Part shown: one piece after another, positions 1 to 32,816 of the stretch
How the letters are laid out: every line of letters begins with the position of its first letter
Position numbering within the stretch: the stretch's first letter is position 1
IMG/VR virus record: IMGVR_UViG_2585427971_000006
DNA from: a virus
Lineage: Duplodnaviria > Heunggongvirae > Uroviricota > Caudoviricetes
Reading direction: 5' to 3' (one strand)
Length of the DNA: 38,221 bases
Notes under the pieces: model-generated
Databases searched by the model: none
The model's input: only the letters and a program-made list of their open reading frames with translations
Told to the model about the DNA's origin: nothing
Position numbers and translations under genes: made by a program

Positions 1-171
1 TATCGCGCCCTCAACAATGAGTTTTGTGATGCGGTGCCTGGTGCCTCCAGGTGACGTTAACCAGTTAACAATTAACGCCGGATACAGAGAATCCACCCAT
101 AACACTGTTTTTGGTTTTAACTGTTCCGCGTGCGCTTAGCCGCATTCACCGCATCACAAAATTCACTTTAA

Positions 172-227
172 AAAGGGAGGCAGAGCAGTCACGGAGTAAA
201 ACTGATACCGCCAAACGTCACCAGAAA
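172..227 (-). ncRNA. dicF: DicF-like sRNA (cell-division inhibitor sRNA of Qin-type prophages)
   Basis: Reverse complement of 171-227 reads TTTCTGGTGACGTTTGGCGGTATCAGTTTTACTCCGTGACTGCTCTGCCTCCCTTTTT, matching my memory of E. coli DicF except about one base; ends in a U-run; lies downstream of the ydfC-like ORF on the same strand as in Qin. Ends are approximate. Confidence 0.7.
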
Positions 228-567
228 ATTGATAACAGAGGGCGTTGCAGCGGGGTTGTCACTTAAGCGTATGGTCAACCTGACAACCCGGTGTCCTCAA
301 CGGGGAAGGAATAACCCCGCCATACTTACCGCCGCGCCATTTCGCGTAGTGCCACAACCGGAAGCGCACGGTCGACGAAAATTTAACGACAGGCTATCTA
401 TGAACCAGCTACCTCGCCGTGCGCTTTCGCGTTATGGTCTGACTTTTCATGGAAATATCCTTTCAGTAAACTGTCAGTGCCGGATGCTCACCCGTGTCCG
501 GCGCACGCACTCCACCTCACCCGTGGAGAACTCCTTAATTACCAACCTTAGCTTCGTTGGTTAGCTA

Positions 568-786
568 TTAACGCTGGTATGTAATCATTCTGGCAATGCT
601 TAATGCCGCTGCTTTTTCCAGCCTGGTGATATCCTGCTCCAGAGCGGACAGATTTTCAGCCTGCTTAGCCCTGGCTTCATTGGCCCATTTCAGATCCTGC
701 GCTGCATTAATTTTCTGGCGCATCCACTCATAAAGTTCATCATCGGTATAGTCTGGCGCGATGATGACGGGTTCTCGTTTCTGCAT
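568..786 (-). CDS. ydfC: small prophage protein, YdfC-like (72 aa)
   Basis: Track ORF of 72 aa; size and position (last ORF before the DicF-like sRNA, same strand as the repressor) match Qin ydfC; sequence identity not verified. Confidence 0.6.
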   Translation of the reverse strand: MQKREPVIIAPDYTDDELYEWMRQKINAAQDLKWANEARAKQAENLSALEQDITRLEKAAALSIARMITYQR

Positions 787-815
787 ACTGATTCCTCGCG
801 GTGCTGCTTCGCTTA

Positions 816-944
816 TCAGCCGTTAGATTTTGCCGAGCTGGAAAGCGCCTGTTTAAACTCACTGAAGCTGAGAGCTTCTTCGCCTTCGGTAAGGCCTTCG
901 AAGTATTCTTCGTAAGCCTTTTTCATGATTGTGTCGAAATCCAT
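816..944 (-). CDS. ydfB: small prophage protein, YdfB-like (42 aa), absent from the ORF track
   Basis: Manual translation MDFDTIMKKAYEEYFEGLTEGEEALSFSEFKQALSSSAKSNG; ATG at 944-942 sits 2 nt after the stop of the upstream ORF; 42 aa matches Qin ydfB in size and position. Confidence 0.5.
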   Translation of the reverse strand: MDFDTIMKKAYEEYFEGLTEGEEALSFSEFKQALSSSAKSNG

Positions 945-945
945 A

Positions 946-1101
946 TCACTCACCTGAGTTTCTTTCCAGCCAGCGACGGGCACCATTTTCGGTTTTAAAC
1001 GTTTTGCTTTTGGTATACGTCATCGCGGTGAATGTGCCGTCCTGGTTGGGAAACACGCCGTACACCAGAGATTCGTTGTTGCCAAGATCGATAGTATCCA
1101 T
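946..1101 (-). CDS. ydfA: small prophage protein, YdfA-like (51 aa from internal ATG of track ORF 946..1182)
   Basis: Internal Met gives MDTIDLGNNESLVYGVFPNQDGTFTAMTYTKSKTFKTENGARRWLERNSGE, exactly 51 aa as expected for YdfA; first gene downstream of the repressor on the same strand. Confidence 0.55.
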   Translation of the reverse strand: MDTIDLGNNESLVYGVFPNQDGTFTAMTYTKSKTFKTENGARRWLERNSGE

Positions 1102-1287
1102 GTTGACCTCATTTCCCCTTAACGCCGGGGTAGCGGAACAAAAACCTGCTGCATAGTTATTAAAGTTGAACCCTGCCGTCATGTTCTTACGCCTCGGGCT
1201 GGCTACTTAACCCCTGACCACTGCCTGGTAACTCGAAGTATTGCCCTGCATTCTGTGGGGCGGGGTGGGTTGGTATGAAAAGAAGGA

Positions 1288-1324
1288 TACCCATAGGTAT
1301 TTAAAAAGTAAATACCCATGGGTA
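1288..1324. promoter_or_regulatory. pair of operator-like palindromes (OL-like) between repressor 3' end and the ydfA-like operon
   Basis: TACCCATAGGTA (1288-1299) and perfect 12-bp palindrome TACCCATGGGTA (1313-1324), about 25 bp centre to centre, in an AT-rich intergenic region. Confidence 0.4.
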
Positions 1325-1366
1325 AATTTTTGCGGTGTCTTAACTGGTGACTAGTTGTTTGGTGAG

Positions 1367-1786
1367 CTATGATGCGTTTTGTGCTTTCTTTTTACGGATT
1401 TCTTCGTAGATCATATTGTAATACTGTTTTTTCTCTTCAAGAGTTTTTAATAATTTATCCGCTTCACTTTCTGGCAGTTCGTCTAAGAGATCTAAAAAAA
1501 TACGTTGTCGTGGCGTTAGAACCCTTGTTTCATAACTGGAGGCTGTGTTCGTTGATGATGAAACGATACCATCCATCCATCCCCGGGGTAACCCAAAGGA
1601 CTCTTCGATAATCTCCACCATATCATCAGCGATCCGTTTTTTTCCCTTTTTCCCCTCTGGGTACAACATTCTTGATACATAAGAAGGCTCGCGCCCGATC
1701 TTTCTGGCCACGTTAACCGCTTTACCATCGCATTTCTCATCACGAATTTTGATGAGTTGCTGTCGTCTAAATTCATATTTGTCCAT
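1367..1786 (-). CDS. CI-like prophage repressor, helix-turn-helix (139 aa)
   Basis: Divergent from the cro-like gene; HTH-like segment AVNVARKIGREPSYVSRML; occupies the dicA/racR position; not similar to my recollection of K-12 DicA. Confidence 0.75.
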   Translation of the reverse strand: MDKYEFRRQQLIKIRDEKCDGKAVNVARKIGREPSYVSRMLYPEGKKGKKRIADDMVEIIEESFGLPRGWMDGIVSSSTNTASSYETRVLTPRQRIFLDLLDELPESEADKLLKTLEEKKQYYNMIYEEIRKKKAQNAS

Positions 1787-1821
1787 AGGTAAATAATAGA
1801 TGCGATTACCGCAAGGTAAAC

Positions 1822-1862
1822 AACCTGTGGGTATTGACTTTTGTTTACCTGTGGGTATTCTT
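1822..1862 (+). promoter_or_regulatory. OR-like operators overlapping a rightward promoter for the cro-like gene
   Basis: Two related half-palindromic sites ACCTGTGGGTAT (about 1823-1834 and 1847-1858) sharing the CCxxTGGGTA core of the leftward sites; TTGACT at 1834-1839 with a possible -10 TATTCT at 1856-1861; AAGGAG RBS follows at 1876-1881. Confidence 0.4.
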
Positions 1863-1886
1863 TGCTGTGTTTACTAAGGAGTAGCT

Positions 1887-2168
1887 ATGGAAGAATTAAG
1901 AATATTTCTCAATTCTCTTTCGTCAGATGAACAGCGTATGTTTGCATGCGAGTGTGGTACCAGCATCGGTTATCTAAGAAAGGCATTGAGTAAAGGTCAA
2001 GTGTTAGGGGCATCGTTATGTGTCCTTATTGAGCGAGCCAGTAATGGTGAAGTTACACGTCAGCAACTAAGGCCTTTTGATTGGATGAATATTTGGCCCG
2101 AGCTGGAAGATACCAAAACGTTAACACAACAACTTTCTAGGAGCTTGATTCATGAAAATCAAGCATGA
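1887..2168 (+). CDS. Cro/YdaS-like HTH regulator (93 aa)
   Basis: AAGGAG RBS 6 nt upstream of ATG; motif GTSIGYLRKALSKGQVLGASLCVLIERASNGEVTRQQLRPFDW typical of the YdaS/Cro-like family encoded opposite prophage repressors. Confidence 0.75.
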   Translation: MEELRIFLNSLSSDEQRMFACECGTSIGYLRKALSKGQVLGASLCVLIERASNGEVTRQQLRPFDWMNIWPELEDTKTLTQQLSRSLIHENQA

Positions 2169-2577
2169 ACACATCCGCATGGCGATGAATGTCTGGGCGC
2201 ATCCGGACGGCGAAAAAGTGCCGGCTGCGAAAATTACCAAAGCGTATTTCGAGCTGGGAATGACGTTCCCGGAACTGTATGACGACAGCCATCCGGAAGC
2301 CCTGGCCCGTAATACCCAGAAAATTTTCCGTTGGCTGGATAAAGACACCCCTGATGCTGTTGAAAAAATGCAGGCTCTGTTACCGGCGATCGAAAAGGCG
2401 ATGCCGCCTTTGCTGGTGGCCCGTATGCGCAGCCACAGTTCTGAATATTACCGTGAGATCGTCGAACGGAGGGATCGGCTGGTGAAGGATGTCGATGATT
2501 TTGTTGCGTCAGCGGTTGTTTTGTATGACCAGATGAATCGCGGCGGCCCGGCAGGGAATGCTGTGGTGATGCACTAA
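2152..2577 (+). CDS. YdaT-like protein (141 aa)
   Basis: Overlaps the 3' end of the cro-like gene by 17 nt, RBS AGGAG at 2138-2142; arrangement repressor / YdaS-like / YdaT-like as in Rac; family assignment from memory. Confidence 0.65.
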   Translation: MKIKHEHIRMAMNVWAHPDGEKVPAAKITKAYFELGMTFPELYDDSHPEALARNTQKIFRWLDKDTPDAVEKMQALLPAIEKAMPPLLVARMRSHSSEYYREIVERRDRLVKDVDDFVASAVVLYDQMNRGGPAGNAVVMH

Positions 2578-2599
2578 AAGCACGGTGTTCGGGGGTTTT

Positions 2600-3562
2600 A
2601 TGAGCAGCAAGCTTCATGGTCTTGTCTGGGAAGGGTGCGCCTTCACCGGCATGATCTTATCCAGGGTGGCGGTTATGGCCCGTCTTGCAGACTACAGCAA
2701 TGACGAGGGCGTGTCATGGCCTGCCATTGAAACTATCCGGCGTCAGATCGGTGCAAGAAGTGAATCCACAGTGAAATCGGCTATTGCAGAACTGGCGAAA
2801 GAGGGCTGGCTGACGAAGGAAGAGCGTAAGGTCGGTGGGCGTAATGTAAGCAATATCTATCGGCTTAATGTGGAAAAACTCGAAGCAGCTGCGGCGGCGG
2901 CGCGTGAGTCATATAAACCGAAAAGAAAAATTAGCCCGGCAAAAAATGACCCGTTAACAGTTGACCCGTCAAATATTGACCCCTCAACGGTTGACCCGTC
3001 AAATTTTGATGGATCAACTGTTGATAAAAAACTGCCGATTAGGGGGCCGATGATTGACCCCGATCCGTCAGTATTAAAACCTGATCCGTCAGATAAAAGA
3101 TCTTCTTGTCCGGACGCTTCGCAACCGGACCCGCAGACGGCTGAACAGGATTTTTTAACCCGACACCCTGACGCGGTTGTGTTCAGTGCGAAAAAACGCC
3201 AGTGGGGAAGTCAGGAAGATTTGGTGTGCGCACAGTGGATCTGGGGACGAATCGTGAGTCTTTACGAGCAGGCGGCCAGCTATGATGGCGAGATCACTAG
3301 ACCGAAAGAACCCAACTGGACAGCATGGGCCAATGACGTTCGCACAATGCGGATGCTGGATGGCAGAACTCACAGACAAATTTGTGAAATGTTTGGGCGT
3401 CTCCAGCGGGATTCGTTCTGGGTAAAAAACATCATGAGTCCGGCAAAACTCCGGGAAAAATGGGATGAACTGGTTATCCGCCTGGGGCGTTCGCCTGCGC
3501 AGCGTTGCGTGAATCACATTTCTGAACCGGACACTGAAATTCCGCCGGGCTTCAGGGGGTAA
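2600..3562 (+). CDS. phage replication initiation protein (N-terminal winged-helix, C-terminal DnaT/O-like domain)
   Basis: ATG at 2600 preceded by GGGGG; central DPS-rich repetitive linker encoded by iteron-like DNA repeats; C-terminal segment WGRIVSLYEQAASYDGEITRPKEPNWTAWANDVRTMRMLDGRTHRQI resembles the DnaT-type replication domain; track ORF starts at GTG 2585. Confidence 0.75.
   Translation: MSSKLHGLVWEGCAFTGMILSRVAVMARLADYSNDEGVSWPAIETIRRQIGARSESTVKSAIAELAKEGWLTKEERKVGGRNVSNIYRLNVEKLEAAAAAARESYKPKRKISPAKNDPLTVDPSNIDPSTVDPSNFDGSTVDKKLPIRGPMIDPDPSVLKPDPSDKRSSCPDASQPDPQTAEQDFLTRHPDAVVFSAKKRQWGSQEDLVCAQWIWGRIVSLYEQAASYDGEITRPKEPNWTAWANDVRTMRMLDGRTHRQICEMFGRLQRDSFWVKNIMSPAKLREKWDELVIRLGRSPAQRCVNHISEPDTEIPPGFRG
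2946..3005. repeat. four iteron-like 15-bp repeats (TGACCCGTCAA core) inside the replication gene, followed by an AT-rich tract: candidate ori
   Basis: Repeats begin at 2946, 2961, 2976 and 2991 with exact 15-bp periodicity; AT-rich stretch at 3001-3040; two further degenerate copies near 3054 and 3081. Confidence 0.55.
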
Positions 3563-3602
3563 GTGTTAATTTCTGGTCATGAGGTAATTTTCAGGAGGGC
3601 TT

Positions 3603-4025
3603 GTGGCAAAAGTTTTTACACAAGAAGAGCGGGAAAAAATTAAAGGGCAGGTTGTTGAACTCGTACGCCAGAGTGGGCGCGAGACGTTACGACAACTGGA
3701 AACTAAAACTGGGGCAACAAGATATCTGATGAGCGTTCTCGCAAGAGAGCTGGTTGCCAGCGGCGATGTATACAACTCTGGTTACGGGTTATTCCCGTCT
3801 GAACAGGCGCGTAAGGACTGGCAAAATGCCCGTAAAAAGCTCTCAAGGGCAAAGCCGAAGAAACCATCTGCGGTTGATCCGGACCTTATCTGGTCATTAC
3901 CAGACGGAGAAATACGCCGCTACGACAGGCGCCTGAATATAATCTGTCGCGAGTGCCGGAAGAGCGAAGCTATGCAGCGTGTACTGGCTTTCTATCAGGG
4001 TAATTTTCAGGAGGCGGTACTGTGA
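3603..4025 (+). CDS. hypothetical early-region protein (140 aa)
   Basis: GTG start 5 nt after AGGAGG (3592-3597); protein-like composition; no family recognised. Confidence 0.55.
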   Translation: MAKVFTQEEREKIKGQVVELVRQSGRETLRQLETKTGATRYLMSVLARELVASGDVYNSGYGLFPSEQARKDWQNARKKLSRAKPKKPSAVDPDLIWSLPDGEIRRYDRRLNIICRECRKSEAMQRVLAFYQGNFQEAVL

Positions 4026-4082
4026 GTGAAATTAGCTATCAGGCTTCAATTGCCGCTGGCATTCGCATCAAAGGAGAGGAGC

Positions 4083-4439
4083 ATGGAAATAAAACCAGAG
4101 GATGAGTTAAGCAATATCGTTTTATTTCCGGTAAAAGAGGATGACCCTCGTAATCAGGTTAATTTTCTTTATGAGCCATCGGAAAGACCATATTGCCATC
4201 ACGCTTCTGTCCGGGTTGACGAAAAAGAGCGTCAGGTCCGCTGTAAAATCTGCGGTGCAGTTGTGGAGCCATTTGACTGGATGCTCTCTGTGGCGAAAAG
4301 AGAAACCAGACTGGCAGATGATGTAAGGCTCTTGCGCCAGGAGGAACGGGAAAGGCGAAAAAATATAGAAAAGCTAATTCAGATTGAGCGTAACGCGAAA
4401 GCGCGGATACGCAGGGTGACAAAATCCAGAACTGAATAA
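4083..4439 (+). CDS. hypothetical protein with Cys/His zinc-ribbon-like motif (118 aa)
   Basis: ATG at 4083 after AAAGGAGAGG; motif CHHASVRVDEKERQVRCKICGAVVEPFDW; track ORF extends upstream to 4026 without an RBS. Confidence 0.55.
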   Translation: MEIKPEDELSNIVLFPVKEDDPRNQVNFLYEPSERPYCHHASVRVDEKERQVRCKICGAVVEPFDWMLSVAKRETRLADDVRLLRQEERERRKNIEKLIQIERNAKARIRRVTKSRTE

Positions 4440-4532
4440 TTAAATTTAGCACTGTTAAAAATTTAATCCTTAACCGGAGGGATTTCTGCACCCTCAGAAC
4501 ATCAGGAGGCCGCCCGAAAGGGCGGTAGTTAA

Positions 4533-4715
4533 ATGCGAAAGTTTAAAATAATTATTGAAACGGGAATAGCCGGTGGAGATTTCGAGGATGAATTCGAAGT
4601 GGATAATGATGCGACGCCTGATGAAATACATGACGAAGCAAAAGATATTGTCTTTAACTACTGCAATTACTCATATCACGAAATAAAAGACGAAGAGGAA
4701 GAACAAAATGGCTGA
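4533..4715 (+). CDS. small acidic protein (60 aa), nin-like region
   Basis: Track ORF; strongly acidic; a GC hairpin GCCGCCCGAAAGGGCGG sits between an AGGAGG (4504-4509) and the ATG. Confidence 0.45.
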   Translation: MRKFKIIIETGIAGGDFEDEFEVDNDATPDEIHDEAKDIVFNYCNYSYHEIKDEEEEQNG

Positions 4716-4884
4716 TTTTGGTTCAACTAAATACAACGTCAGTTTTGAAGAATGGCATGAACTGTTAATGGACTATGCAGAGTTACGTGGTGGCAGTGCT
4801 GCTGATGCTGAAGCATGGCGTGATGATTATGAAGCAGGAAAAACTCCGGTCGAAGCATATTGTGATGAGTGGGGCGATGAATGA
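4708..4884 (+). CDS. small protein (58 aa), absent from the ORF track
   Basis: Manual translation MADFGSTKYNVSFEEWHELLMDYAELRGGSAADAEAWRDDYEAGKTPVEAYCDEWGDE; start overlaps the upstream stop; stop overlaps the next ATG (ATGA at 4881-4884). Confidence 0.45.
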   Translation: MADFGSTKYNVSFEEWHELLMDYAELRGGSAADAEAWRDDYEAGKTPVEAYCDEWGDE

Positions 4885-5197
4885 GCGAGGTTAATTATCA
4901 GGAAGGGCATGAAACGGCGGGGCAAGCAAAAACAGTGGCATGGCGATATCGCTACGTGAAAAAAAAGGCGTTACGGACTTTCAGGGGAAGTAGTGGTCTG
5001 GTGACTGGAAATATGTACCGAAAAAAGAGGATTGTAACGACAGGCCGAACTATGAAATTCAGGCCTTATTCACTGCCCCGCCAGTCCCGGTTACATCAGA
5101 AGAACTGGTTAAAGCTGTGCACTTTTATGAACAACTAAAACGCGAAAATCCACCAGCATCCGGAAACCTGATTACAGATTCCCAGATAAGGCAATGA
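4881..5197 (+). pseudogene. nin-region gene disrupted by a frame change, or fused by -1 frameshifting
   Basis: Frame-0 ORF 4881..5138 turns into basic low-complexity sequence, while frame 2 (open 4994..5197) encodes protein-like sequence EDCNDRPNYEIQALFTAPPVPVTSEELVKAVHFYEQLKRENPPASGNLITDSQIRQ without a start codon; A_AAA_AAG heptamer at 5021-5027 and an 8-A run at 4959-4966. Confidence 0.3.
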
Positions 5198-5367
5198 GCT
5201 ACCTGACGCAGAACGGGCTGATAAGTATGGGGAATGTTTTACGATGAATATTTAGACTAAAGAGTTTGTAACGCTATGTAAGTGATTTTTTCTGGTTTAG
5301 ATATTTATATGTCCGGCCAAATTGAGGTGTGTTTAAATGTAATTGCACATTGATTGTAGGAGGAATA

Positions 5368-5547
5368 ATGAAAAACGCATTGCAGTTTTTGTTTGTTGCG
5401 TTCTGGTTGTTCGTATCATGTATGCCCATCATCTTCACAGCAAGGTATATGGAAAAAGTTGATGTTTTGATATTAATATTTGGATATATAAATGCCCTTT
5501 TTTTAGGGGTGTTCATGGCGGTCATGTGCATTGAATACTGGCGGTAA
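5368..5547 (+). CDS. small two-helix membrane protein (59 aa) in an AT-rich islet
   Basis: AGGAGG at 5358-5363 before ATG 5368; hydrophobic segments FLFVAFWLFVSCMPIIF and ILIFGYINALFLGVFMAVMCI; track ORF starts further upstream. Confidence 0.45.
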   Translation: MKNALQFLFVAFWLFVSCMPIIFTARYMEKVDVLILIFGYINALFLGVFMAVMCIEYWR

Positions 5548-5602
5548 ATACAGCGAACGCCATTGGTTTAGTTGGATATTTACTGTGCCGGACAAAAACG
5601 GT

Positions 5603-5630
5603 TTGCGGGGAAATCTTAGTTAAGTAGAAT
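5603..5630 (+). promoter_or_regulatory. sigma70-like promoter of the hok-family mRNA
   Basis: TTGCGG (5603-5608), 16-nt spacer, TAGAAT (5625-5630); predicted start near 5637 coincides with the 5' element that is complementary to the 3' end of the mRNA. Confidence 0.45.
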
Positions 5631-5749
5631 GACTGCGGGTGCTTGAGGCTATCTGTCTCAGGCATGAACACCAAAAGGCAGATAGAGAAAAGCCCCAGTT
5701 AACATTACGCGTCCTGCAAGACGCTTAACATTAATCTGAGGCCATATCT

Positions 5750-5809
5750 ATGCGACACATAGAGATTAGCCTCTTACGGACCGAAAGGTCAAGGAGAAGC
5801 AGGCTATGA
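5750..5809 (+). CDS. short leader ORF overlapping the hok start (mok-like, 19 codons)
   Basis: ATG at 5750 with GAGG 8 nt upstream; stop TGA at 5807-5809 overlaps the hok ATG at 5806, as expected for translational coupling. Confidence 0.35.
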   Translation: MRHIEISLLRTERSRRSRL

Positions 5810-5961
5810 AGCAGCAAAAGGCGATGTTAATCGCCCTGATCGTCATCTGTTTAACCGTCATAGTGACGGCACTGGTAACGAGGAAAGACCTCTGCGAGGT
5901 ACGAATCCGAACCGGCCAGACGGAGGTCGCTGTCTTCACAGCTTACGAACCTGAGGAGTAA
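5806..5961 (+). CDS. hokD: Hok/Gef-family type I toxin (51 aa)
   Basis: Manual translation MKQQKAMLIALIVICLTVIVTALVTRKDLCEVRIRTGQTEVAVFTAYEPEE, absent from the ORF track; matches my memory of RelF/HokD and closely resembles Gef; AAGGAGAAG RBS; hokD-rem-ydfU-quuQ order as in Qin. Confidence 0.85.
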   Translation: MKQQKAMLIALIVICLTVIVTALVTRKDLCEVRIRTGQTEVAVFTAYEPEE

Positions 5962-6029
5962 GAGACCTGGCGGGGGAGAAATCCCTCGCCACCTCTGATG
6001 TGTCAGGCATCCTCAACGCACCCGCACTT

Positions 6030-32097: not shown

Positions 32098-32800
32098 CAC
32101 AGAAAACCCCCAGCTAGGCTGGGGGTTCCGGAAAGCTTTCAGCTTTAAGCCAGTTATTAAAACCCCTTTTGATTTGTTAAAACACCTTGCGGTCTGGCAA
32201 CTGCAAGTGTCAAACAAGAAATCAAAAGGGGGTCCCAATGGGGAACGAAAAGAGCTTAGCGCACACCCGATGGAACTGTAAATATCACATAGTTTTTGCG
32301 CCAAAATACCGAAGACAGGTGTTCTACAGAGAGAAGCGTAGAGCAATAGGCAGTATTTTGAGAAAGCTGTGTGAGTGGAAAAGTGTACGGATTCTGGAAG
32401 CTGAATGCTGTGCAGATCATATCCATATGCTTGTGGAGATCCCGCCCAAAATGAGCGTATCCGGCTTTATGGGATATCTGAAAGGGAAAAGCAGTCTGAT
32501 GCTTTACGAGCAGTTTGGTGATTTGAAATTCAAATACAGGAACAGGGAGTTCTGGTGCAGAGGGTACTACGTCGATACGGTGGGTAAGAACACGGCGAAG
32601 ATACAGGATTACATAAAGCACCAGCTTGAAGAGGATAAAATGGGAGAGCAGTTATCGATTCCCTATCCGGGCAGCCCGTTTACGGGCCGTAAGTAACGAA
32701 GTTGGATGCAAATGTCAGATCGTGTGCGCCTGTTAGGGCGCGGCTGGTAAGAGAGCCTTATAGGCGCATTTGAAAAACCTCCGGCTATGCCGGAGGATAT
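32098..32800 (+). mobile_element. IS200/IS605-family insertion sequence (boundaries approximate)
   Basis: Single Y1 transposase gene flanked by perfect subterminal hairpins CCCCCAGCTAGGCTGGGGG (32107-32125) and CCTCCGGCTATGCCGGAGG (32777-32795); about 700 bp; inserted between the lom terminator and the stf start. Confidence 0.6.
32238..32696 (+). CDS. tnpA: IS200-family transposase TnpA (Y1/HuH, 152 aa)
   Basis: MGNEKSLAHTRWNCKYHIVFAPKYRRQVFY...ADHIHMLVEIPPK (HuH motif) and the catalytic Tyr region RGYYVDTVG; track ORF starts upstream at 32187. Confidence 0.85.
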   Translation: MGNEKSLAHTRWNCKYHIVFAPKYRRQVFYREKRRAIGSILRKLCEWKSVRILEAECCADHIHMLVEIPPKMSVSGFMGYLKGKSSLMLYEQFGDLKFKYRNREFWCRGYYVDTVGKNTAKIQDYIKHQLEEDKMGEQLSIPYPGSPFTGRK

Positions 32801-32816
32801 TTATTGTGGAGTGGAT

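Follow-up and report, generated by a model that had tools for sequence, protein, structure and literature searches.

The 38,221-nucleotide stretch of tailed-phage DNA analyzed here (IMG/VR record IMGVR_UViG_2585427971_000006, Caudoviricetes; "the window" below means this whole stretch) carries a gene for a replication initiator at 2600-3562, and the middle of that gene is occupied by phased 15-bp repeats, raising the question of whether these repeats serve the encoded peptide or form a DNA element in their own right. An earlier note on the window proposed the second, a replication origin placed inside the initiator gene as in phage lambda and with an iteron specificity of its own. Sequence comparison now makes it very likely that ~2930-3135 serves a lambdoid (Qin/Rac-like) prophage as its vegetative replication origin, lying within the codons for the disordered linker of an O-type initiator. 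We favor this reading because the initiator belongs to the O family and the repeats sit where the iterons sit in lambda, with the DNA-binding domain on one side and the O C-terminal domain on the other, and because the region is conserved at the DNA level and its repeats covary with the N-terminal domain. Both the lambda-like arrangement and the distinct specificity claimed earlier are thereby upheld.

By homology, the initiator is an O-family protein with an N-terminal DNA-binding domain of another family. The protein matched PHROG 391, 'replication initiation O-like', with an E of 4e-115. Its real start is ATG 2600 and not GTG 2585, the start of a 325-aa mechanical open reading frame (ORF): the coding sequence is 963 nt in the identical RefSeq E. 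coli locus (L001), and MSSKLHG is the N-terminus of homologues, supporting ATG 2600. Pfam returned HTH_36 (E 2e-6) at residues 25-71 of the 320-aa protein (30-76 of the 325-aa ORF) and, besides it, only a weak DnaD_N match. In an AlphaFold model built from 33 homologues, the N-terminal domain formed a helical bundle with a beta-hairpin wing (predicted local distance difference test score, pLDDT, 70-87), and linker residues 109-179 (nucleotides 2924-3136) were disordered (pLDDT < 50). A fold search of the model retrieved just generic winged-helix regulators, which are dimeric, at E values of at least 2.7e-3, and no specific initiator structure. Residues 153-300 aligned to the lambda O C-terminal domain with 35% identity over 148 aa (BLASTP, E 5e-26), nothing upstream of residue 153 aligned to lambda O, and tblastn extended the homology of this domain to O of 933W and related Shiga toxin (Stx) phages and to phi80 gene 15 (gp15). 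The earlier statement that the initiator is not lambda O is thus correct for the HTH_36 domain and wrong for the homologous C-terminal domain. The parts of the gene are as follows.

2600-3562, plus strand: replication initiator gene, lambda O-like, 320 aa (PHROG 391)
2600-2911, plus strand: N-terminal winged-helix DNA-binding domain, aa 1-104, presumed iteron reader (Pfam HTH_36)
2924-3136, no strand: proposed origin region, under nucleotide-level constraint, encoding the disordered linker, aa 109-179
3137-3490, plus strand: C-terminal helical domain, aa 180-297 (tblastn, BLASTP and model)
3491-3559, plus strand: C-terminal tail, disordered in the model, ending IPPGFRG and weakly resembling the host DnaT C-terminus

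Within the linker, the repeats hold an exact 15-bp phase. Read directly from the sequence, ATGACCCGTTAACAG, TTGACCCGTCAAATA, TTGACCCCTCAACGG and TTGACCCGTCAAATT start at 2946, 2961, 2976 and 2991; a repeat finder gave unit spacings of 15, 15 and 15, and Tandem Repeats Finder reported over 2926-3024 a period of 15 with ~5 copies, outscored by one of 30 with 2.5-3 copies and 80-84% matches. The TTGACCCSTCAA core had three exact matches in the 38-kb window, all within the array. With up to two mismatches allowed there were 14 matches, compared to 5.9 +/- 2.6 in shuffled sequence (none of 100 shuffles reached 14), and half of them (7/14) fell in 2946-3017. Each unit shows dyad symmetry as a near-palindrome, TTGAC-CC-GTCAA, whose reverse complement matches it with two central mismatches, and the units encode xDPSx pentapeptides, in line with the DPS-rich linker peptide noted before. 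The array is longer than four units, with further units at 3006, 3021, 3039 and 3054, and the constrained element runs from ~2930 to ~3135; the earlier limits of four iterons in 2946-3040 were therefore too narrow, even though the four units themselves stand.

2946-2957, no strand: iteron 1, ATGACCCGTTAA, degenerate, 2 mismatches
2961-2972, no strand: iteron 2, TTGACCCGTCAA
2976-2987, no strand: iteron 3, TTGACCCCTCAA
2991-3002, no strand: iteron 4, TTGACCCGTCAA
3006-3017: iteron 5, TTGATGGATCAA, degenerate and in flipped orientation; other genera have TTGAGGGGTCAA here
3021-3032: half-site and A-tract, TTGATAAAAAAC, the core of the AT-rich tract of the earlier note
3039-3065: distal iteron pair, 15 bp apart, TTAGGGGGCCGA at 3039 (degenerate) and TTGACCCCGATC at 3054, from the DNA alignment

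A TGRYAAAAA element in the half-site and A-tract is kept in both subfamilies of the initiator (that of the window and that of Shigella phage SfIV). In the DNA alignment, the unit at 3039 reads TTAAGGGGTCAA in five of the other loci, and the distance from the main array to the distal pair is 33 bp in four loci from three genera (Salmonella, Edwardsiella, Pantoea). As a single strand, the array could fold into a long hairpin (z = -4.2); an Rfam scan of 1-6000 gave nothing meaningful at the repeats, the mir-250 match there (E 0.26) reflecting hairpin potential only.

We compared orthologous loci from E. coli, Citrobacter, Salmonella, Edwardsiella, Serratia, Pantoea, Erwinia, Morganella, Klebsiella, phage SfIV and a metagenome. 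The diversity of these loci came mainly from 12 exact-protein look-ups, a scan of genome contigs gave 11 loci, and a scan of viral contigs gave 80 near-identical E. coli copies that are informative for copy-number variation only. The 15-bp phased linker repeats were present in all orthologous loci collected, close homologues included. In the 11 loci with the N-terminal domain subtype of the window, drawn from ~9 genera, TTGA-SSSS-TCAA with at most one outer mismatch occurred at 41 sites, all in the linker, compared to a single site in 54.8 kb of flanking DNA. Spacings between these sites were 15, 30 or 45 bp, and a distance of 33 bp to the distal pair recurred. The motif was used in either orientation: TTGAGGGGTCAA, the reverse complement of TTGACCCCTCAA, specifies EGS rather than DPS, and the Morganella copy carries the flipped form exclusively. 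Units encoding DPS, EGS, DGS, NPS and DPP all retain TTGA-SSSS-TCAA, and the residues flanking the core vary (V, I or F before; N, T or K after) around motif bases, -TT and A-, that stay fixed.

Codon usage gave the same picture. Serine was encoded by TCA at 96/163 positions in the linker and at 55/323 elsewhere in the same genes (p = 2e-20; the compared sequences are mutually related, so that p-values overstate independence and are indicative only, and all tests ran in the same direction). Synonymous codon identity, scored in a codon alignment between sequences sharing the amino acid, was 0.66-0.97 over ~2930-3135 and 0.30-0.63 (about 0.45) in the folded domains, and amino-acid identity was lowest (0.28-0.68) precisely in the former stretch. 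This is the opposite of a conserved peptide whose synonymous sites drift freely, and it points to selection on the repeat DNA beyond the needs of the protein.

Among relatives, the repeat sequence changes together with the type of DNA-binding domain on the initiator. Escherichia albertii locus L006 has five 23-bp units, CATCGGGTCAAAATGACACGATG, at 3213-3328, in the same place and before the same C-terminal domain; Citrobacter L012 has 23-bp units, AGAATGCGGAACCACCGCAAAC, at 2987-3144, also with the same C-terminal domain; lambda-like Rahnella L013 has 20-bp palindromes, GTGTCACTACCGTAGTGACA, 23-24 bp apart at 2861-2927; and Edwardsiella phage Edno5 has 24-bp units, AATGATCCCAAAATTGGGATTTTG, with the same C-terminal domain. 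Each of these four initiators has another N-terminal domain. Like phi80 gene 15, they resemble the window in pairing an O-type C-terminal domain with their own N-terminal domain and their own linker repeats, and they differ in that their 20-24-bp units are unrelated to the 15-bp period of the window clade. Locus L111 has its own 20-24-bp repeat family at 1706-1812, in the equivalent linker and with a different N-terminal domain. The repeat families of L006, L012, L013 and L111 probably represent further uncharacterized origin specificities.

Within the window clade, the 15-bp period is retained even in distant members (SfIV, Klebsiella, phage Eeyore and Yersinia phage YeP3), where a sister consensus, TCTGAYNCRTCAAAA, is found. 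The replication proteins of SfIV and SfII (Shigella), SKA5 and PhiR29 (E. coli) and Klebsiella prophages, and the HTH_36 proteins of Stx-phage 'Eru' units, belong to the same family, with 56-58% full-length identity. This group shares 15-bp phased TCTGAYNCRTCAAAA and the conserved block downstream, and differs from the window as a sister subfamily whose flanks deviate slightly and whose center is less constrained. Copy number ranged from 1 to 8 across homologues in whole 15-bp, 5-aa steps, and two close E. coli copies (L088 and L094) had exactly one unit fewer. Judged from these sequences, the N-terminal domain and its iterons travel as one cassette, which is the classical lambdoid picture.

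Downstream of the main array, the choice of unwinding region is less clear-cut than first proposed. The tract at 3001-3040 singled out earlier is indeed AT-rich (70% A+T vs 50% for the window) and overlaps degenerate repeats, and its predicted duplex instability, at the 95th-98th percentile, is real but modest. A second stretch of like instability lies at 3068-3107, and the strongest synonymous constraint (0.87-0.97) falls at 3038-3135 rather than on the main array. Two elements stood out in a DNA alignment of 17 loci.

3062-3103, no strand: conserved block, moderately AT-rich (96th percentile of instability), with GATCCGTCAG boxes at 3062 and 3083 and AGATCT at 3098-3103
3108-3130, no strand: palindrome GTCCGG-N11-CCGGAC, kept even in relatives with other N-terminal domains

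Both GATCCGTCAG boxes are conserved across genera; in one viral contig from E. coli (L086), 21 bp have been lost between them (~3066-3086), equal to one unit of that pair. Residue 144 of lambda O marks the end of the lambda iterons, after which come the AT-rich tract and a palindrome, in that order. The protein alignment, loose in the linker and anchored by a conserved PDA motif, places the lambda tract opposite ~3056-3105 of the window, so that by analogy 3062-3107 is at least as good a candidate unwinding region as 3001-3040. The palindrome at 3108-3130 may likewise be a positional analogue of the one to the right of the lambda AT-rich tract, or else a module junction. GATC occurs at 3012, 3062, 3083 and 3099, forming the tightest three-site and four-site clusters in a window that is otherwise GATC-poor (108 sites vs ~149 expected); together with the conserved GATCCGTCAG boxes, this cluster suggests an origin sensitive to Dam and SeqA. 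Two resemblances to host origin elements, judged by eye against consensus sequences, were poor and were dropped: GATCTTCTTGTCC as an oriC 13-mer (7/11) and TTATCTGAC as a DnaA box (5/9).

We infer a sequence of events that takes in binding by the N-terminal domain, unwinding, helicase loading and activity of the window copy. The N-terminal winged-helix domain would bind the 12-bp near-palindromes TTGAC-CC-GTCAA across 2946-3017 and at 3039 and 3054, most simply as dimers, and the resulting multimeric initiator-DNA complex would destabilize the adjoining A+T-rich stretch, either 3001-3038 or the GATC-rich 3062-3107. The lambda-O-like C-terminal domain and the tail would then recruit the host DnaB helicase; with no lambda P gene next to the initiator, recruitment would proceed via host DnaB-DnaC. 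Rightward transcription from the cro-side promoter would cross the site, as it does at the lambda origin. The gene order fits such a layout, as a divergent promoter-like pair is followed by a cro-like (YdaS) gene, a YdaT-like gene and the initiator, which thus has the position of O in lambda. The promoter in question is a consensus match only, and transcription from it would cross the origin.

1834-1861, plus strand: rightward promoter-like site upstream of the cro-like gene, the ydaT-like gene and the initiator

How the helicase might be loaded is suggested by the C-terminal tail. In a comparison that took in loci L095-L106, the window and SfIV, a lambda P family gene came next after all six orthologues whose tail is of the lambda-like W-x-x-L type, compared to none of eight with the GFRG tail (IPxGFRG; window and SfIV included), a difference with a Fisher p of 3e-4 for loci that are not independent. 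The neighbors of GFRG-tailed initiators were DUF977, PerC/YfdN-like or other genes, and in one case a DnaC-like gene. A weak match (E 0.004-0.03) links the GFRG tail to the C-terminal end of host DnaT, a protein that acts in DnaB-DnaC loading at replication restart (PMC13377028), which suggests that the tail could be a route to DnaB-DnaC that dispenses with a phage loader. The isolated phage SfIV shares this initiator type and tail, and lacks both a P and a DnaC gene.

Set against lambdoid origins (architecture from PMC7466680), the site is a variant of a familiar plan. Like the lambda origin, it has tandem dyad-symmetric initiator sites inside the initiator ORF, between N-terminal and C-terminal domains of which the latter are homologous (35% identity), a less stable stretch and then a palindrome on the C-terminal domain side, and a place in the rightward early operon after the cro-like gene and the gene in the cII position. 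It differs in having an HTH_36 domain in place of the lambda O N-terminal domain, 12-bp sites at a 15-bp period where lambda has four 18-bp sites 20-24 bp apart, iterons in both orientations, a far weaker AT-rich tract, no P gene next to it and a DnaT-like tail. The iteron comparison that the earlier note called for thus yields a different type, and the locus departs from lambda O/P in the strict sense in N-terminal domain family, iteron type and adjacent P gene. In Stx phages 933W and P27, which have six lambda-type iterons, iteron number varies and adds linker residues (PMC7466680); number varies here too, by whole 15-bp, 5-aa units. Those phages have true lambda-type O and iterons, with binding and plasmid replication established by experiment, whereas the window type is known by sequence. 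In iteron plasmids such as pSC101, R6K, P1 and RK2, the iterons mostly lie between genes, measure 17-22 bp and are bound by Rep monomers, and they show no sequence relationship to the window element. As in the arrangement proposed here, such plasmids combine a winged-helix initiator that binds tandem repeats with an adjoining unwinding region (PMC4980987). The Rac origin oriJ with YdaU was considered as a known counterpart and rejected, YdaU of K-12 being a DUF1376 protein of another family.

Several observations weigh against an active origin of the kind we propose. The best A+T-rich stretches are 64-77% A+T (68-77% for 3001-3031 and 3068-3107), far short of the lambda tract. A 15-bp spacing places adjacent sites on nearly opposite faces of the helix, as compared to ~20-24 bp in lambda, and the complex may thus look different from the lambda O-some. 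Mutated units such as TTGCCCCCTCAA and TTGACCTGTCAA occur in some close E. coli copies, as would be expected of decaying prophages. No phage helicase-loader gene was found beside the initiator in the window, and no description of this origin type was found in the open-access literature, although older subscription papers could hold one. Because a loader gene is missing here and a relative has a DnaC-like gene, the window copy could depend wholly on the host or be crippled.

The last point leads to the first of the rival explanations, that the site is an origin by descent and the window copy a non-functional relic in a defective prophage, which we regard as unlikely but by no means negligible. 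The initiator of the window is followed directly by DUF977, as in L001, and then by a gene with a weak zinc-ribbon match, with no lambda P. In favor of a relic, the 90%-identical relative L105 has DnaC-like (IstB_IS21) and DUF1627 genes between initiator and DUF977 (3448-5010 in L105, compared to 3562-3603 in the window), which makes the window and L001 ~1.5 kb shorter there. Iteron 1 and the 3039 unit are degenerate, and the neighborhood resembles that of the cryptic Qin and Rac prophages. Rfam identified DicF RNA at 175-226 (minus strand, 69 bits) and sok antitoxin RNA at 5637-5808 (plus strand, 107 bits), along with a sub-threshold STnc100-like match at 23-163 (minus strand), all typical of Qin/Rac-type lambdoid prophages, and the identical locus L001 has dicB/ydfD and hokD. 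On the other side, the initiator ORF is intact, three perfect iterons remain, a number reported to be sufficient for lambda (PMC7466680), the window holds a full set of late genes as judged by ORF sizes, and SfIV has the same tail type and no loader gene. The N-terminal domain and origin segment are, moreover, at least 99% identical in 1370/5426 complete E. coli genomes.

A different geometry would keep the DNA-level role and abandon the lambda-like complex. Here, continuous alternating half-sites (TTGA/TCAA), which the 15-bp period places ~7-8 bp apart, would nucleate a helical winged-helix filament unlike the lambda O-some, combined with a loader-free DnaT-mimic tail and Dam/SeqA control through the GATC cluster at 3062-3103. 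We consider this combination rather doubtful.

We think it quite improbable that the array binds protein at the DNA level without being an origin, whether as an autoregulatory or roadblock site or, for 3100-3135, as a junction promoting exchange of phage modules. Plasmid iterons also serve copy control and autorepression, which lends the first version some plausibility. For the junction, the 3101-3130 block is kept in chimeras with other N-terminal domains, and the hybrid crossover points annotated in lambda fall at the corresponding place, immediately to the right of the iterons. A junction would nevertheless leave unexplained the iterons and the 3038-3100 block, which is absent in L006 and L012 with their other N-terminal domains. 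For a non-origin array, the difficulty is that the gene encodes an O-family initiator, that the array lies exactly at the position of the lambda origin, and that a tandem-repeat scan of the whole window revealed no other candidate origin, that is, no other repeat array beside an AT-rich tract (repeat and promoter scans covered the early region). Either version is less economical than an origin.

Another possibility, to which we give hardly any credence, is that an internal translation start (AGGGGG, 3 nt and an in-frame ATG at 3041-3052) yields a C-terminal-domain-only protein and so explains the synonymous constraint. Shine-Dalgarno-like AGGGGG or AAGGGG does precede an in-frame ATG in E. coli, Edwardsiella, Pantoea and Erwinia, and some plasmids are known to make a second, in-frame Rep product (PMC6854812). 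However, the ATG is absent in Salmonella (ACC ATT) and in the entire SfIV subfamily (subfamily B), CCCCCC of a flipped iteron replaces the purine run in Serratia and Morganella, a 3-nt spacing is short for a ribosome-binding site, and such a start would account for just ~12 of ~200 constrained bases; as it is not conserved, we rejected a start at 3050. Equally implausible is a peptide feature only, a DPS-rich flexible linker generated by slippage with no role for the DNA, for which one may cite the predicted disorder, the copy-number changes in whole units and the commonness of low-complexity linkers in multidomain proteins, and which is largely refuted by the synonymous constraint and the motif counts, with the TCA bias, the retention of the DNA and not the peptide (reverse-complement form included) and the unrelated repeats at the same position beside other N-terminal domains adding to the case.

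Two further repeat features elsewhere in the window complete the description. A long inverted repeat, its stem 16 bp in length and a minus-strand T-run coming after it, lies at 1288-1324, just downstream of the ORF in the repressor position (1367-1786), and this ORF had no Pfam match at E <= 0.01. In the tail-fiber region, ORF 32787-33944 contains tandem repeats of 21 and 42 bp at 33317-33642 (~2-3.7 copies, 65-79% matches).

Returning to the proposed origin, its sequence type seems to be new or uncharacterized, and its arrangement is the one expected for lambdoid phages. Searches of the open-access literature for the SfIV origin, yfdO and the iterons were empty, and a search for the motif found no phage paper there, the matches being unrelated primers. 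The open-access papers searched on Stx-phage replication units mention HTH_36 proteins and no origin (PMC8951638). To a specialist, the main conclusion will be unsurprising, and it leaves the concept of how a lambdoid origin is built unchanged; what is unusual is the detail, namely the 15-bp period, the strongly conserved GATC-rich block and the absent loader gene. The locus would also offer a concise case of a DNA element carried by the codons for an intrinsically disordered linker.

The cassette is widespread, yet its origin has apparently gone unannotated: 28% of complete E. coli genomes, strains of O157:H7, O104:H4, ST131 and O127:H6 among them, have it in prophages, as do many other Enterobacterales. 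With the origin and its iteron code known, it would be easier to tell which prophages are still able to replicate, a point that bears on induction, lateral transduction and toxin-gene amplification, and to foresee incompatibility or cross-activation between prophages resident in the same cell.

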